21,206 bases of DNA. Origin: a phage. Position 1 is the first letter of the stretch. Every line of letters starts with the position of its first letter. The notes under the pieces are model-generated. The model did not search any database, was not told the DNA's origin, and worked only from the letters and a program-made list of their open reading frames with translations. Positions 11-8,122 of the stretch are shown here, piece by piece. Location of the stretch: NCBI GenBank assembly GCA_021534775.1, contig GCA_021534775.1_4809.2; one strand, given 5' to 3'. The translations under genes and the position numbers were made by a program.

Positions 11-625
11 ATGAACGCGAAAGGGTACGGCATGGTGAAGGCGATGAAATATATCGAAGCGCGTGAAGCCGGAACCTTAACGCAAAAGCAGAAGGATGCA
101 TTGGCCAATGCTGAAGTTAAATATGGCGACCTGACAGAGATGCACACAAAGTTCGGATGGGCATATAATGACCCTTATCTGATTGGCGTGACGTCCGGCG
201 CTTCAATACGCCAGATGAAGGAAGTCGGTGATGACGAGCGCGCAATAGTAATCGGCAAGTTGACAAAGAAAGTGCTTGCGGACGAGAACGAAGCAACACG
301 CATCCGTAAACGACTTGAGCGCGGCATCTATACAAAGCACGGCAAGCTTAAAAAGGGTCTTCAAGCTGATGGCCGCTACGCAGAGTTTGACCAGTACGGG
401 AACAAGCTTGAGACTCAGTTCATCGACCTTATGTGCAAGGATGACTCGACCGACTCGCCAATGCGCTTCAGGATTCGTCCAGAGAAGTTCCAGAAGTACG
501 GGAAGTACATCGCTGAAAACGTCGGGAACGGCGCATTCTTCCTGATGAAAGGTCGTAAGCTTGAAGGCATTGACATGTTCATCGTTGACGTGATCAAACA
601 GGTGTATCCAGATGGCAACAAATAA
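11..625 (+). CDS. hypothetical phage protein, possibly 5'-truncated by the window edge
   Basis: 204-codon ORF from the first ATG at 11; the reading frame is open back to nt 2, so the true start may lie upstream of the window. Its 3' end overlaps the next gene by 14 nt. No recognisable motif. Confidence 0.55.
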   Translation: MNAKGYGMVKAMKYIEAREAGTLTQKQKDALANAEVKYGDLTEMHTKFGWAYNDPYLIGVTSGASIRQMKEVGDDERAIVIGKLTKKVLADENEATRIRKRLERGIYTKHGKLKKGLQADGRYAEFDQYGNKLETQFIDLMCKDDSTDSPMRFRIRPEKFQKYGKYIAENVGNGAFFLMKGRKLEGIDMFIVDVIKQVYPDGNK

Positions 626-1034
626 CCGTGAGCAGAAATACATATTCGTGCCTTTGAAGAAGCATTCAGAATCGGTATTGAAGCTTCAACGAATCGAGTC
701 GATGACTGGTGATGGCGTGCCGGACGTAATCGGCACCAACCGGAAAGGGCGCGGCTTTTGGCTTGAAATGAAGTTCTTTGAATCGTGGCCTGCAAGGGCC
801 ACCACTGCACCTTTCAGAAATGCATTTGAGAAAGGCCAATGCAGCTTTCTTTCTTCGTGGAATGATTGGAAATACCCATCATTTGTTCTGCTTAAGGTTG
901 ATTCTGAGAAGATGTTTTATTTAGTCCACCCTTCTATTGAATTAAAGCGTTATAATACTGCAGACGTTCAACGTGAGATAATCGTGAAGGGAACTATTCA
1001 TCACATCATCAAGTATTTAGAGGAATTGTCATGA
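612..1034 (+). CDS. VRR-NUC / PD-(D/E)xK-like nuclease
   Basis: The translation contains GVPDVIG followed about 15 residues later by GFWLEMKF, i.e. a PD...E-x-K arrangement typical of VRR-NUC and restriction-endonuclease-fold nucleases. A GGTG ribosome-binding site precedes the ATG. The stop overlaps the start of the helicase gene (ATGA). Confidence 0.6.
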   Translation: MATNNREQKYIFVPLKKHSESVLKLQRIESMTGDGVPDVIGTNRKGRGFWLEMKFFESWPARATTAPFRNAFEKGQCSFLSSWNDWKYPSFVLLKVDSEKMFYLVHPSIELKRYNTADVQREIIVKGTIHHIIKYLEELS

Positions 1035-2554
1035 AAACACAAGGAATGCGCCACCAATTATTGGCGCTTGATAAAGCAGGCCGCAGAAAATACTTTGCCT
1101 ATTTCATGGAACAGGGTCTTGGTAAAACATGGACCGCTTTGGCAGAATTTGAAAAGCACTTCACCGCTGGCGCGTTTGATGCCATGGTTGTTATTGCTCC
1201 AAACGGTGTCCACTCAAACTGGATTCGTCGTGAAGCGCCAGAGCACCTTTCCATCAAGTGGATTGGGCATTACTGGCGCGGCAATGACAAGATGAAGACT
1301 AAAAAGGGCAAGGCGCTTTGGGAGAAGATGTTTGCTGATCACTACCCTGAAGGCGAAGTGCCTGCGCGCATCTTCTCATTCAACATTGACACCGTCAACA
1401 CACCAGTCGGTTATCAACACATTGAGTCGGTCTTGAAGAAATACCGCTGTTTGATGATCATTGATGAATCGACGCGTATCAAAAATAACACAGCCAAACG
1501 CTCCATCAAGGTTGTGGAATTGGGACGGCTGGCAAAGGCCCGTCGAATCCTTTCTGGTACGCCGCTGCCACGCTCGCCTGCTGATATTTACATGCAATAT
1601 CACTTCCTTGAAGCTGGCTTGCTTGGCACCAAATCGTTCCGTGCATTCAACTCTGAATTCACAGTTCTACTTGAAGCGCACGACCCAGAGATGCAGGCCA
1701 TTCTCAAGAAAATCGGCGGCAACGGTTATGGCATTCCGCAAGTGCCGCGCAAAGACCAGTTTGGTCGACCGATGTACAAAAACCTTGACAAGCTTATCCG
1801 GCTGATGGAGCCGCACTATTTCCGCGCGACAAAAGCGGAATACTTGCCGGACCTTCCAGAGAAGGTGTACAAGTTTATCGACTTCGAGTTGTCGCCTAAG
1901 CAGCGCGATGTCTACGATGAACTCAAGAATGAGTACAACTATCTGATGGAGTACAAAGGCGAAGAAGAAAACGTTAAGTTTGAGATGATCGCATCTCGCA
2001 CTAAGATGAAGCAGGTGACATCAGGCTTTGTTAAGGTGTATGATGAGATGGTCTACATGGAAGACAACCCACGATTCACGGCCTTTAAGGATTATGTGGA
2101 AGGGGTGCTGGAAGACGACCCAGGGCGCAAATTCATTGTTTGGGCCATCTTCAAGGAAGAGATGAACCAGATTAAGGATTGGCTTGAGTCTGAAGGCGTG
2201 GTCACTGGTGTATACAACGGTGAAACGTCAAAAGAGCAGCGAGAGTTCTTGATTGATGACTTCCAGAAAAACACAGTCGAGAACGGTGGAACACAAGTCT
2301 TGGTTTGCCACGCTGCAGCGGCAGGCATCGGAATCACGCTTACCGCCGCCGACTTGGCAATCTATTATTCTTGCAACTATGACAACGAGTTGCGCAAGCA
2401 ATCCGAAGACCGAAATCACCGCATCGGCACCAAATCAAGCGTGTTGTATGTTGATTTTATTGGGGTTGATACCATCGACGAAGAAATTCAGCGTTCACTG
2501 AGTATGAAGTCCATGCTTGCTGATCACATCCTCGACGGCAAAAAGATGAATTAA
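1031..2554 (+). CDS. SNF2-family (DEAD/DEAH-like) helicase
   Basis: The translation shows SNF2 motif I (MEQGLGKT), motif II (DESTRIKN, DExH-type), motif III (LSGTPLPRSPADIYMQYHFL) and C-terminal helicase motifs (GIGITLTAADLAIYY, QSEDRNHRIG). A GAGGA ribosome-binding site lies 7 nt upstream. Confidence 0.85.
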   Translation: MKTQGMRHQLLALDKAGRRKYFAYFMEQGLGKTWTALAEFEKHFTAGAFDAMVVIAPNGVHSNWIRREAPEHLSIKWIGHYWRGNDKMKTKKGKALWEKMFADHYPEGEVPARIFSFNIDTVNTPVGYQHIESVLKKYRCLMIIDESTRIKNNTAKRSIKVVELGRLAKARRILSGTPLPRSPADIYMQYHFLEAGLLGTKSFRAFNSEFTVLLEAHDPEMQAILKKIGGNGYGIPQVPRKDQFGRPMYKNLDKLIRLMEPHYFRATKAEYLPDLPEKVYKFIDFELSPKQRDVYDELKNEYNYLMEYKGEEENVKFEMIASRTKMKQVTSGFVKVYDEMVYMEDNPRFTAFKDYVEGVLEDDPGRKFIVWAIFKEEMNQIKDWLESEGVVTGVYNGETSKEQREFLIDDFQKNTVENGGTQVLVCHAAAAGIGITLTAADLAIYYSCNYDNELRKQSEDRNHRIGTKSSVLYVDFIGVDTIDEEIQRSLSMKSMLADHILDGKKMN

Positions 2555-2567
2555 TATCAAAAATAAT

Positions 2568-2596
2568 TTGACTTGTCATGGAAGATGAGTCATAAT
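2568..2596 (+). promoter_or_regulatory. sigma70-like promoter candidate (TTGACT, 17-nt spacer, CATAAT)
   Basis: TTGACT at 2568-2573 and CATAAT at 2591-2596 are separated by exactly 17 nt, in the 74-nt gap after the helicase stop and before the ORF at 2629. Read directly from the sequence. Confidence 0.4.
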
Positions 2597-2628
2597 TACT
2601 TCATCGAAACGAAACAGAGGAATACAAA

Positions 2629-2892
2629 ATGGTGCGCATCCTTGAACGTTACAAAAATGAAGCCACTGGCGCAATCGCTTTCAAACGTCTTTTGGTCAAA
2701 GAAATTGACGGGGTGTTCCGCGTTGTTAAAGAGTTTGATTATGGCAACGGTGCTGGGGTGAATACCGTTATTATGCCTGGCATCAAGGCATATAAAACCT
2801 TAAAAGGCGCTGAGAAGGCTTTGGCGGCTTGGAAACCTGAACGTTATCAAATGACCCGTGTTGAAGGGCTAATGCAAGAAGGTAAAATATGA
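2629..2892 (+). CDS. hypothetical protein (87 aa)
   Basis: ORF with an AGAGGA ribosome-binding site 6-7 nt upstream of the ATG; the stop overlaps the next start (ATGA). No recognisable motif. Confidence 0.55.
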   Translation: MVRILERYKNEATGAIAFKRLLVKEIDGVFRVVKEFDYGNGAGVNTVIMPGIKAYKTLKGAEKALAAWKPERYQMTRVEGLMQEGKI

Positions 2893-3446
2893 GCAATATT
2901 AATTGGGAAGATGATTTGCCGCAGGTTGCTCCTGAGAGCATTCAAGAGCGCCTTGCGCGCTTAGTGTCTGAACTGGCAGAACGCCAAGAAGCTTTGACAG
3001 AGCTTGAAGATGAAGCTGATATGCAAAAGCAGCGCATCAGCGAAATCAAAACTGTTCTGCTTCCTGGCGTTATGGATGAGCTTGGCGTGTCCGAAATCAA
3101 GCTTGAGGACAAGACCAAAATCAAGGTCGAGTCCAAGGTGAATGCTTCGATCAAGAAAGAAAACGAATTAAAAGTTTTCGATTGGCTTGTCAACAACGGT
3201 TACGGCGGCCTGATCAAGTCCAGCGTCACGGCTGAGTTCGGTCGCGAAGAAATCGAACAGGCGCAAGAGATTGTTGCCGCGCTGCGTGAAGATGGTGTTG
3301 AAGCCACACTGAAACAAGGCGTTCATTCTGCTACACTGAAGTCCTTTGTAAAAGAACAGCTGGAAGCAGGCAATCCAGTTAGTGAAGATATTAGCGTTTT
3401 TGAATACAAAGAAGCTAAAATAACCTTGCCTAAAAGCAAAAAGTAA
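2889..3446 (+). CDS. hypothetical acidic coiled-coil protein (185 aa)
   Basis: Translationally coupled to the upstream ORF. The N-terminal half is Glu/Leu/Lys-rich and heptad-like (ERLARLVSELAERQEALTELEDEADMQKQRISEIK). Function unknown. Confidence 0.55.
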   Translation: MSNINWEDDLPQVAPESIQERLARLVSELAERQEALTELEDEADMQKQRISEIKTVLLPGVMDELGVSEIKLEDKTKIKVESKVNASIKKENELKVFDWLVNNGYGGLIKSSVTAEFGREEIEQAQEIVAALREDGVEATLKQGVHSATLKSFVKEQLEAGNPVSEDISVFEYKEAKITLPKSKK

Positions 3447-3505
3447 TTTAACCTTTATCTTGAAATCAGGTTGCCACAAAACTTGATACTATAGGAAAAT
3501 ATCAA

Positions 3506-4366
3506 ATGTCTAAGAAAGAAACTACCGAAGTTGCAGTGAAAAACACCCAGATGTCCGCTATGGCTGATTTTGTCGACATGACCGATTTTGGCGCTGGTTT
3601 TGAAGGTGCCGATGCCGATGCGTATGCCATTCCTTTTATCGTCGTGCTGCAGAAGATGTCTCCTATGGTCGACGAAGATGATCCAAAACACGTTCCTGGC
3701 GCAAAAGCTGGCATGCTTTACAACACCGTTACTGGTGAGTTGTATGACGGTAAGAAAGGCGTGCAGATCATCCCTTGCGCATTCAAACGCACCTTCATTC
3801 TTTGGGGCGGTCGCGAGTCCGACGATAAAGGCTTTAAAGGTGAATTTACCAAAGAGCACGTTGATGCAGAAGTCGCGGCAGGCCGCGCTGTTGAGATCAA
3901 TGGTAAAGTGTTTGTGCCGGACGAAAACGGAAAAGTGCACGAGAAGAAATCACCTTACTACGCAGATACACGTAACCACTTCGTGATTCTGTTAAACGAA
4001 GAAACGGGTGAATTTGGCAGTGCCATGCTGTCTTTGACTTCTTCGATGATCAAGCCGTCTCGTATGCTGATGACCGCGCTGCAGCAGAAGAAAGTTCAGA
4101 CTCCGCAAGGTCTGAAAACGCCGCCGACCTTTATGAACATCGTTCGCATGGGTACTGCATCCCAGTCCAAAGACGGCAACACCTGGTCCGTTCTGAAGTT
4201 TGAGCTGGAAGGTCTGGTGCAGGACAAAGGCCTGTACGAAGTCGCCAAGGCATTCCACAACGATGTGGTTGGCGGCAACGTTAACATCGACCGCAGCAAG
4301 CAAGAAGAAGCAAGCGGTGCCGCTGGTCCTGTCGATGCGACTCCGACCGACGCAGAAGAGTTTTAA
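3506..4366 (+). CDS. putative ssDNA-binding protein (acidic C-terminal tail ending in Phe, T7 gp2.5-like architecture); function unproven
   Basis: 286-aa ORF with an AGGAAAA ribosome-binding site. The C-terminus is ...SGAAGPVDATPTDAEEF; an acidic tail with a terminal aromatic residue is a hallmark of phage and bacterial SSBs. The assignment is by architecture only; no OB-fold motif was verified. Confidence 0.45.
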   Translation: MSKKETTEVAVKNTQMSAMADFVDMTDFGAGFEGADADAYAIPFIVVLQKMSPMVDEDDPKHVPGAKAGMLYNTVTGELYDGKKGVQIIPCAFKRTFILWGGRESDDKGFKGEFTKEHVDAEVAAGRAVEINGKVFVPDENGKVHEKKSPYYADTRNHFVILLNEETGEFGSAMLSLTSSMIKPSRMLMTALQQKKVQTPQGLKTPPTFMNIVRMGTASQSKDGNTWSVLKFELEGLVQDKGLYEVAKAFHNDVVGGNVNIDRSKQEEASGAAGPVDATPTDAEEF

Positions 4367-4385
4367 TCGACAATCAAATCAACAA

Positions 4386-4410
4386 GGCTGCCGATTGGCG
4401 GCCTTTTATT
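4386..4410 (+). terminator. rho-independent terminator candidate
   Basis: GGCTGCC / GGCGGCC stem (7 bp, one G-U pair) with a 4-nt loop, followed by TTTTATTTAT, 20 nt after the stop of the 3506-4366 ORF. Confidence 0.5.
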
Positions 4411-4423
4411 TATCTGGTGCATC

Positions 4424-4942
4424 ATGATAGAAAGAATTGTACCGCTCCTGAAGATTCTGGCCCTTGTTGGCGCGTTTGCCGCTGGATCATACGTTGAAGA
4501 CCTGCAGCAAACCAACGCATCACTGGTCAAGGATAACCAATATCTGACATCGCTTAATGAGCGTAAGGACAAGATAAATGCACTCGAAGAGCAAATTGCA
4601 TCTTTACAGGTTGAATCGGCATCGGCATATGAGAAAGGTCGCCAGGAAGCGCAACTGGTTGCTGATGACACTATTGCTCGTTACAAGTCTGGGAATATCA
4701 GGCTGCGCGCGCAACTCAGCTGCTCCCGTGAGTTACTCAGGAGCGTGCCCGACTCTGCGACCACTGGACGCCTCTCTATCCCAGAAGGAAACTGTGGACT
4801 ATCAGAAGAAGATGTCAGATTTCTTGTTCAGTTCGCCGCAGAAACAAACCGATTAAAAGAGAAAGTTAATAGCTTGATTGATACTTATAATCAGGCTAAA
4901 ATAAAAATCGATCAATTCAACGCATCAAAGGAAAATAAATGA
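4424..4942 (+). CDS. i-spanin (Rz-like inner-membrane spanin subunit)
   Basis: The translation has an N-terminal transmembrane segment (IVPLLKILALVGAFAAGSYV) followed by a coiled-coil-rich periplasmic region and a segment GNIRLRAQLSCSRELL...RLSIPEGN...VRFLVQFAAETNRLKEK, which resembles the lambda Rz pattern (RRLHIKAVC...). A lipoprotein ORF is embedded in the +1 frame. Confidence 0.8.
   Translation: MIERIVPLLKILALVGAFAAGSYVEDLQQTNASLVKDNQYLTSLNERKDKINALEEQIASLQVESASAYEKGRQEAQLVADDTIARYKSGNIRLRAQLSCSRELLRSVPDSATTGRLSIPEGNCGLSEEDVRFLVQFAAETNRLKEKVNSLIDTYNQAKIKIDQFNASKENK
4629..4856 (+). CDS. o-spanin (Rz1-like outer-membrane lipoprotein), embedded in the +1 frame of the i-spanin gene
   Basis: From the internal ATG at 4629 the translation is MRKVARKRNWLLMTLLLVTSLGISG-C..., i.e. 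a basic n-region, hydrophobic core and a lipobox (I-S-G-C). The mature part is short, contains Pro residues and a second Cys. The track ORF begins at 4578, but the ATG at 4629 gives a canonical lipoprotein signal; the ATG at 4665 is an alternative. Confidence 0.7.
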   Translation: MRKVARKRNWLLMTLLLVTSLGISGCARNSAAPVSYSGACPTLRPLDASLSQKETVDYQKKMSDFLFSSPQKQTD

Positions 4943-7477: not shown

Positions 7478-8122
7478 TTACATAACTGCTAGTGCGTCCT
7501 TGTAACGCTTCCGTCGCAAATCCCCATGGTTAGCCGTATTCGGCGCGGCCCCGTTAATCCGCTTAACGGTTGAATCAAAATTTCCTGCATCAGCAAGAGG
7601 AATACAGCCGCTATTCTTAAAGAACCATGCCGCGCTGTCAGCGATGTATTTTGGCTCAGTCAAAATTTCAGGATTATTCAAGGCGTCATATCCTGATTGC
7701 TTTGAATAATCTGCATAGTTATCCTTTCCAGTCAGCTGAATGGCACCACGGCCACGGTACTTCCAACCGTCGCCTGATGCTACCGAACCGTTGCCCATGC
7801 GGTTTGCATATGTATTATTGGCGATTTCCATTGGTTTACGGGCAATCGACAACGCCAAGGAGTTGGGTGCACCGCCGAAAAGACCGCTGGCGCTGTAACG
7901 GCTAGGCCATGTATTAGCAAGACCTTGAGCGGAATAATTCAAGTTTTCCACAAATGTCTTCAGACTGCCTGTTTCCACTCCTACGTTTGCAAGCAACGCT
8001 GCGATGGCATTCTTGCTTTTGATTCCGTAGTGCTCACAAGCCTGCTTGAAAGGGTCCACCCATTTCTCTGCGACATCCATGCTGCATCCGGTCCCTTTAG
8101 ATATTACGTTTGCATTAATCAT
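7478..8122 (-). CDS. endolysin, glycoside hydrolase family 19 (chitinase-like) type
   Basis: The translation contains YRGRGAIQLTGKDNY and YIADSAAWFFKNSG, matching the two GH19 signature regions, plus LLANVGVETGSL. No signal peptide. The start could alternatively be the internal ATG at 8080. Confidence 0.8.
   Translation of the reverse strand: MINANVISKGTGCSMDVAEKWVDPFKQACEHYGIKSKNAIAALLANVGVETGSLKTFVENLNYSAQGLANTWPSRYSASGLFGGAPNSLALSIARKPMEIANNTYANRMGNGSVASGDGWKYRGRGAIQLTGKDNYADYSKQSGYDALNNPEILTEPKYIADSAAWFFKNSGCIPLADAGNFDSTVKRINGAAPNTANHGDLRRKRYKDALAVM

Follow-up and report, generated by a model that had tools for sequence, protein, structure and literature searches.

A candidate single-stranded DNA-binding protein with a near-invariant DUF7307 neighbour in the replication module of wifceviruses

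The 21,206-nt stretch of phage DNA analyzed here (GenBank assembly GCA_021534775.1, contig GCA_021534775.1_4809.2; hereafter ‘the window’) carries a unit of three consecutive open reading frames, ORF1, ORF2 and ORF3, the last of which is examined below as a candidate phage single-stranded DNA-binding protein (SSB). The 2-kb region is 95–97% identical to 29 GenBank phages that belong to the genus Wifcevirus, among them WFC, WFH, ECML-117, FEC19, Mansfield and the BASEL phages Bas98–101, and in every annotated Wifcevirus record among those 29, the products of all three ORFs are labelled ‘hypothetical protein’. In the curated records of Mansfield and Bas99, the gene order is DNA polymerase III (Pol III) epsilon-like exonuclease, Pol III alpha, a 140-residue protein, an SNF2/UvsW-like helicase, ORF1–3, i-/o-spanin, MazG and an ATP-dependent ligase; the left edge of the window falls inside Pol III alpha, whose frame runs off the window with no in-frame stop there. 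The three-ORF unit lies within the DNA-replication module of a Wifcevirus. An earlier note, made from the nucleotide letters of the window, had described a promoter, three ORFs with ribosome-binding sites, a DAEEF C-terminus and a closing hairpin, all of which are present where it placed them, as follows.

2568–2596, plus strand: putative sigma-70 promoter, TTGACT and CATAAT around a 17-nt spacer (10/12 match), in the 74-nt gap after the helicase gene
2629–2892, plus strand: ORF1, 87 residues, basic (isoelectric point, pI, 9.7), with GAGGAA upstream; a lineage-specific orphan
2889–3446, plus strand: ORF2, 185 residues, acidic (pI 4.7), Pfam DUF7307 or ‘Pam3 gp33-like’; its start and the ORF1 stop overlap in ATGA
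3447–3505, plus strand: 59-nt A/U-rich spacer with the ORF3 ribosome-binding site AGGAAA and a 9/12 promoter-like match at 3471–3500
3506–4366, plus strand: ORF3, 286 residues, Pfam Pam3_Gp34, putative phage SSB, with AGGAAA upstream and ending in DAEEF
4286–4363, plus strand: acidic flexible tail of ORF3 with terminal Phe (residues ~261–286), a putative partner-recruitment peptide; predicted local distance difference test (pLDDT) below 50 at residues 267–286
4384–4415, plus strand: putative intrinsic terminator, a hairpin at 4384–4405 (−15.9 kcal/mol) with a T-rich tail to 4415

ORF3 is a member of a large and almost uniformly uncharacterized family. It matches Pfam PF23977 (Pam3_Gp34) with 289.1 bits against a cutoff of 27 (E-value 4.2e-86) over profile positions 3–234 of 235, and the same domain is carried by all 120 homologs among the matches listed. 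The family comprises 4,759 clusters at 50% identity (E ≤ 1e-3, in a library of 1.84 billion representatives), and nearly all of the best 150 representatives listed are single-domain proteins of about 255–320 residues. Homologs occur in Pbunavirus, BcepF1, Kyle, Carpasina and TropicalSun. In Pseudomonas phage 14-1, gp52 (299 residues) and gp53 (206 residues) lie between the helicase and the MazG/ligase genes; we assign them as the homologs of ORF3 and ORF2, respectively, from synteny alone, because they occupy the equivalent position. The Pbunavirus homolog P0086 of phage phiLCL12, which represents a cluster of 115 sequences, goes under the name ‘putative holin’ in GenBank, probably by a misannotation, which could spread to other records: no membrane helices are predicted in the model of its homolog, and its gene sits among replication genes. 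A full-text literature search for the family names DUF7307 and Pam3_Gp34 returned nothing relevant, and an NCBIfam scan gave nothing useful.

Judged by the alignments, an acidic tail ending in Phe is a family-defining feature. F286 is invariant in a 43-sequence alignment, and Phe is the final residue of 229 of 262 full-length homologs (87%), with Tyr or Trp in a further 8. Over their last 15 residues, the 262 homologs average a net charge of −3.1, with a negative value in 95% of cases, as against −0.12 per 15 residues in the core. Twenty representatives end in [DE][DE]xPF, and the tails found in a second, more diverged set of loci include AEDDDIPF, DSIPF, EEIPF and GDMPF. E. coli SSB has DDDIPF as its C-terminal tip, while the reference proteins T7 gp2.5 and the bacterial-type SSB of Sfi21 terminate in DGDF and DLPF, respectively. 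The presence of an exact host SSB tip in unrelated members is otherwise hard to explain and argues that the ORF3 family occupies the SSB niche. A disordered acidic C-terminus with a conserved aromatic end, as expected of the SSB class, is thus found at the level of sequence, and the cue from which the earlier note had suspected an SSB is conserved family-wide, with DDDIPF tips in some members.

The predicted structure points in the same direction. An AlphaFold2 model built from 43 diverse homologs has a core pLDDT of about 90, with disorder restricted to the N-terminus (residues 1–16), a loop (32–41) and the last 20 residues. The predicted architecture consists of a beta-rich core resembling an oligonucleotide/oligosaccharide-binding (OB) fold, at residues ~44–260, followed by a disordered linker rich in alanine and acidic residues and the tip DAEEF (~261–286). 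An OB-fold or equivalent core, the structural hallmark of the SSB class, is therefore present in the prediction, whose nearest likeness is to gp3/gp32-type phage SSBs and OB-fold single-stranded DNA (ssDNA) binders. A Foldseek search of BFVD with ORF3 returned mostly uncharacterized phage proteins; the named matches were ‘Single-stranded DNA-binding protein’ (twice), ‘Recombination directionality factor’ (once) and ‘DNA binding protein’ (once). The family also has a conserved N-terminal motif, DF..GFEG.D.D.[FY]AIPF, at about residues 20–45. Within it, residues 39–45 (window about 3620–3640) contain a near-invariant [FY]-A-I-P-F that follows an acidic stretch (GFEGADADAYAIPF) and resembles the IPF tip of bacterial SSBs; it is predicted to open a beta-strand, and coincidence or an intramolecular mimic of the tail are candidate readings.

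ORF2 is the constant companion of this protein. It matches Pfam PF23984 (DUF7307) with 128.1 bits against a cutoff of 27 (E-value 2.6e-37) over profile positions 1–128 of 129, and both ORF2 and ORF3 also match PHROGs of no assigned function. A DUF7307 gene lies immediately 5′ of the ORF3 relative, on the same strand, in 79 of 80 loci from IMG/VR and in 21 of 22 loci of the more diverged set (100/102 overall), the single exception in each set being a locus cut by a contig end. This near-universal adjacency makes ORF2–ORF3 an essentially invariant pair, from which we infer that ORF2 is a dedicated partner of ORF3. Its predicted layout comprises a long N-terminal helix of 48 residues (18–65), a small alpha/beta C-terminal part and a basic tail, KITLPKSKK. 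The Gp157-like identity once guessed for this protein was rejected at the sequence level: ORF2 and Sipho_Gp157 (PF05565; Sfi21) are alike in size (~160–185 residues) and in standing at the head of a recombination/SSB gene cluster, but ORF2 has no Pfam match to that family and its hhalign probability against Sfi21 gp157 is 0.09%, in a comparison made with no deeper profile because the Gp157 relatives retrieved were all at least 83% identical.

The first gene of the unit is of a different nature. ORF1 has no Pfam or NCBIfam match, hits phrog_27467 only and is confined to 9 clusters, all at least 63% identical. In relatives, the slot 5′ of DUF7307 is held by a ~111-residue Pam3_gp32-like protein (PF23992) in 62 of 77 loci, recognizable by the motifs VFIPQ...AVGDP...MLKWD; it is present in most of loci L011–L086 (for instance, L064 5134–5490 and L084 4726–5079). 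The slot is empty in Pbunavirus and occupied by ORF1 in wifceviruses, and no PF23992 protein is found anywhere in the whole Wifcevirus genome. ORF1 was also considered as a diverged Pam3_gp32-like protein, a candidate rejected on the lack of a Pfam match at E ≤ 1 and an hhalign probability of 0.7% against the slot family. By sequence comparison, ORF1 is a Wifcevirus-specific orphan in a variable slot, not a conserved partner. The suggestion that the two upstream proteins are partners of ORF3 thus finds support for ORF2, with its near-invariant adjacency, and fails for ORF1; conversely, the statement that none of the three matches a nameable family stands for ORF1 and gives way for ORF2 (DUF7307) and ORF3 (Pam3_Gp34), even if neither family has been given a function.

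Transcription of the unit was assessed by comparison with 71 distinct related loci from IMG/VR and with control windows. The −35 hexamer TTGACT (2568–2573) begins 14 nt after the helicase stop (2554), the −10 hexamer CATAAT occupies 2591–2596, and an A/T-rich stretch precedes the site, which has the hexamers, the spacing (16–18-nt class) and the intergenic position 5′ of genes that are typical of sigma-70 promoters. A lone 10/12 match is at chance level (17 sites in 9 kb against 12.2 ± 3.5 expected), and positional conservation was therefore tested in the relatives. A site scoring at least 8/12 lies just 3′ of the helicase stop in 49 of 55 loci versus 20% of control windows, and relatives whose ORF3 homolog is only 55–60% identical often carry TTGCCG-17-CATAAT at the same offset after that stop. 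In five wifceviruses, both hexamers and the ribosome-binding site are invariant, while four nearby positions vary. The near-consensus promoter noticed directly after the helicase gene is thus upheld as a putative element. The text of the ONT-cappable-seq paper does not discuss gp51–54, the homologous region of phage 14-1.

At the other end of the unit, the putative terminator is composed of AAGGCTGCC-GATT-GGCGGCCTT, forming a 9-bp stem (6 G–C pairs) with a 4-nt loop, followed by the tail TTATTTATCT. Its free energy corresponds to a z-score of −2.8, and none of 200 shuffled sequences folds as well. The hairpin is annotated as a terminator in Mansfield, and in the WFC and WFH records the matching stretch also carries a terminator feature. 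A terminator-like hairpin lies 3′ of the ORF3 homolog in 41 of the 71 distinct loci (58%) versus 5% of control windows, consistent with the hairpin terminator proposed to close the unit. It is this conservation of position in diverged relatives that makes both the promoter and the terminator credible as putative elements. The description of the unit as self-contained, on the other hand, was overstated. No terminator was found between the helicase gene and the promoter, so upstream read-through is likely, and the spanin/MazG/ligase genes begin 19 nt past the hairpin with no promoter-like site of their own found, for which reason the hairpin probably attenuates transcription rather than stopping it.

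The spacer between ORF2 and ORF3 may hold a further layer of control in some relatives. Promoter-like sites of at least 9/12 occur in 28% of the relatives’ spacers versus 2% of controls, and promoter-like or hairpin elements are frequent there. The spacers of loci L013, L022, L027, L081 and L083 share a promoter-like TTGCCT/TTTACT-17-TAT[TC]AT followed by a small conserved hairpin (CCCACAGTTGAA..CAACTG), and GC-rich relatives have different hairpins at this place; the spacer of the window shows no more than an A/U-rich leader and a weak inverted repeat, AACCT...AGGTT. By analogy with T4 gp32 autoregulation, the leader in relatives could regulate the SSB-like gene. An internal promoter for ORF3 at 3471–3500 is unconvincing: the match is 9/12, and the −10 element ends 5 nt before the ATG, which makes the site unlikely to serve ORF3.

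The replisome around the unit has a vacancy that ORF3 could fill. Bas99 encodes Pol III alpha/epsilon, two helicases, primases, a ligase, thymidylate synthase and polynucleotide kinase (PNK), and none of its 114 genes is annotated as an SSB. Pfam searches with 20 further hypothetical proteins yielded no SSB or OB family, and phmmer searches with gp2.5, gp32, gp3 and a bacterial-type SSB against 1,615 stop-to-stop frames (the window and the whole of Bas99) yielded nothing at E ≤ 10. The genomic context of ORF3, a replication module in which no second SSB was found, is thus the one expected of the SSB class. The helicase gene stands directly 5′ of the cassette in most relatives. In smaller Pam3-like contigs, the gp32–gp33–gp34 trio is followed by a RepB-type primase and DUF5906, not by Pol III and the SNF2 helicase, which argues that the cassette is portable between replisomes and stays with replication genes.

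Taken together, fold, tail and context favour ORF3 as the phage’s own SSB, an assignment that we regard as fairly probable on sequence and modelling grounds and that supports, at the level of prediction, the proposal of an SSB or annealing protein made in the earlier note. In the model that we infer, for ssDNA binding and partner identities as much as for the role of ORF2 and for promoter and terminator activity, ORF1–3 would be transcribed from a sigma-70-type promoter past the helicase gene, probably with a contribution from upstream read-through, and the hairpin, by attenuating spanin/MazG/ligase transcription, would give ORF1–3 a higher transcript dose. The zinc-less OB core of ORF3, of the gp32/gp3 structural type, would coat ssDNA at the fork, set between two flexible arms: the N-terminal aromatic/acidic motif and the C-terminal acidic linker with its invariant Phe. 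Like its counterparts in E. coli SSB and T7 gp2.5, the tip would recruit partners, for which the phage Pol III alpha/epsilon, the SNF2/UvsW-like helicase, a Dda-like helicase and primase are candidates; the partners may be phage-encoded in wifceviruses, where the tip is DAEEF, and host SSB-interactome proteins for members of the DDDIPF type. ORF2 would be the obligate companion, most likely an accessory factor of the coiled-coil type, binding or loading ORF3 as a mediator, loader or chaperone, and ORF1 a small, basic, lineage-specific protein replacing the usual Pam3_gp32-like first gene of the cassette.

Several results weigh against this assignment. ORF3 has no sequence-level homology to any characterized SSB family: hhalign comparisons with gp3, gp32 and gp2.5 all stayed below 1%, even with a 144-sequence profile (effective number of sequences, Neff, 5), and sequence and profile searches of the Protein Data Bank (PDB) with ORF2 and ORF3 returned noise only. 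The Wifcevirus tip DAEEF differs from the canonical bacterial IPF tip. The structure model of ORF2 is moderate only (predicted template modelling score, pTM, 0.40), and a fold search with it returned nothing informative. Finally, the sequence methods that detected no other SSB in Wifcevirus could miss another novel one. Membership of the known families was rejected case by case. The gp2.5/DUF2815 identity first guessed for ORF3 finds no Pfam match and an hhalign probability of 0.8%; T4 gp32 gives 0.3%, and the zinc ligand set is missing; for the Gp3-like RDF/SSB family (PF18897; RDF, recombination directionality factor), there is neither a profile match nor a cognate integrase.

The main alternative overlaps with the SSB assignment and is compatible with it. 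ORF2 and ORF3 would here form a two-component recombination system serving the recombination-dependent replication that so fast a phage would need, in which ORF3 acts mainly in single-strand annealing, in the manner of the OB-fold protein gp2.5, and ORF2 is its mediator. Bas99 has no annotated recombinase of the RecA/UvsX, RecT, Erf or Sak4 type, a gap that ORF2/ORF3 may fill with gp2.5-like annealing, and the genome does encode a UvsW-like helicase, a ligase and a weakly RecU-like 140-residue protein (p140). The annotation of T7 gp2.5 itself names both roles, ssDNA binding and annealing, and the strict two-protein pairing resembles recombination modules. Yet the nearest structures are SSBs, not annealases of the Rad52/RecT type, and annealing activity does not follow from the fold alone, so we consider such a system unlikely to be the better description of the pair.

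Two other explanations take ORF3 away from replication altogether. As a host-takeover or anti-defence module, the possibility voiced in the earlier note, the unit would use the ORF3 tail as a decoy for the SSB interactome or for defence sensors, with ORF1 and ORF2 as further effectors. The exact bacterial SSB tip of some members could indeed compete for host SSB partners, and ORF1 is small, fast-evolving and lineage-specific, like many anti-defence genes. The ORF2–ORF3 pair, however, is conserved across thousands of lineages, in replication modules beside different replisomes; a large, well-folded and conserved OB-like core would be superfluous for a tail decoy; and the mapped anti-defence island of Pbunavirus is gp80–88, whereas the homologs are gp52/gp53. 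With the core pair fixed in the replication module and the Pbunavirus island elsewhere, the suggestion finds no support, and we give it little credence. Still less probable, in our estimate, is that ORF3 is an OB-like or beta-barrel protein with a non-DNA function, such as an assembly/scaffold factor or a binder of small ligands, and that its likeness to SSBs is convergent. One record does name the Pbunavirus homolog a ‘putative holin’, and an acidic coiled-coil protein followed by a ~290-residue protein superficially recalls a scaffold–capsid pair, but the tail matches SSB tips, the unit is embedded among replication genes, and another part of the genome carries the annotated head genes (protease, major head protein and others). 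The scaffold/capsid version is rejected on these two points of location.

Comparison with characterized systems helps to place ORF3. To bacterial SSBs (PF00436), it is similar in its overall plan, a predicted OB core, a disordered linker and an acidic tip ending in Phe, and some members of its family have an identical DDDIPF or D[ED]xPF tip; it differs in having no Pfam SSB match, a core about twice as large and DAEEF in place of IPF. With T7 gp2.5, it shares the acidic C-terminal tail ending in Phe, which in gp2.5 is essential for binding the T7 polymerase and helicase, and presumably the role of a single phage-encoded SSB in an autonomous replisome. T4 gp32, apart from the lack of sequence homology, has a zinc finger, ends in LNDL rather than Phe and has no dedicated upstream partner gene, unlike ORF3. 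The predicted fold of ORF3 is close to the gp3 type of phiC31 gp3 and TG1 gp25 (PF18897), although there is no sequence or profile similarity. TG1 gp25, an RDF similar to those of phiC31 and phiBT1, adopts an OB fold resembling that of gp32 and, in electrophoretic mobility shift assays, binds ssDNA and not dsDNA; it is described as a phage SSB that moonlights as an RDF (PMC11795197). Within this group, ssDNA binding is shown for TG1 gp25 alone. The zinc site predicted in gp25 and gp32 cannot form in ORF3 because ORF3 has one cysteine, and the proposed interaction peptide of gp25 is N-terminal, whereas the conserved tip of ORF3 is C-terminal. An RDF role is irrelevant for ORF3 since Wifcevirus is virulent and has no integrase. 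In phiC31 (locus L004, 1821–3833), gp3 is preceded by the 73-residue gp2 and by gp1, an annotated exonuclease, neither of which has a Pfam match; gp1–gp3 form another small cassette around a gp32-like SSB. Prediction supports ORF3 as a new sequence family within a known functional kind, accompanied by an unexplained obligate partner.

The genes that flank the unit are the following.

612–1034, plus strand: 140-residue protein (p140) between Pol III alpha and the SNF2 helicase, overlapping both; phrog_2165 ‘DNA helicase’
1031–2554, plus strand: SNF2/UvsW-like helicase, 507 residues, Pfam SNF2-rel_dom and Helicase_C
4424–4942, plus strand: i-spanin, co-oriented with MazG and ligase inside the replication module
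4578–4856, plus strand: o-spanin, embedded in the i-spanin gene
7478–8122, opposite strand: endolysin, about 2.5 kb from the spanins

The Mansfield record notes an HHpred similarity of the upstream helicase to T4 UvsW. Despite its PHROG label, p140 is far below helicase size; other hints as to its identity are weak and point to a RecU/Holliday-junction resolvase (phrog_843 at 1e-3; NCBIfam RecU at 0.026), and its position is kept in most relatives. Elsewhere in Bas99 (locus L005, 42587–43576 and 43718–44557, minus strand), two proteins of 329 and 279 residues with no Pfam match are encoded in the interval from thymidylate synthase to the Dda-like helicase, and are candidates to supply the recombination functions that this phage group is missing. 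On the downstream side, it is unusual to find lysis genes placed so that they would depend on read-through of the terminator behind the SSB-like gene.

A broader reading, which we put forward tentatively and hold to be possible rather than probable, is that the cassette of Pam3_gp32-like, DUF7307 and Pam3_Gp34 proteins is an undescribed multi-subunit machine for handling ssDNA, made of an SSB, a dedicated coiled-coil protein for its loading or mediation and, in most cases, a small third subunit. Portable between unrelated replisomes (Pol III alpha with an SNF2 helicase, or a RepB primase with DUF5906), it would stand in for both the SSB and the recombination mediator in thousands of phage lineages; in wifceviruses, an exchange would have put the unrelated orphan ORF1 in the place of the first subunit, and DDDIPF members would plug into the host SSB interactome.

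The ORF3 family is annotated as ‘hypothetical’ almost everywhere, and once as ‘putative holin’, although it includes therapeutic Pseudomonas phages of the genus Pbunavirus (14-1 gp52; PB1-like phages). The BASEL paper reports that wifceviruses replicate unusually fast, and this lends their replication proteins particular interest. Phage SSBs have value as reagents, and a new class with host-like tips would be of practical interest. If ORF3 is an SSB, it would supply what is lacking from replisomes otherwise equipped with a polymerase, helicases, primase and ligase, provide a guess at the function of the invariant partner DUF7307, and extend the gp32/gp3 structural class of phage SSBs by a relative that lacks zinc.

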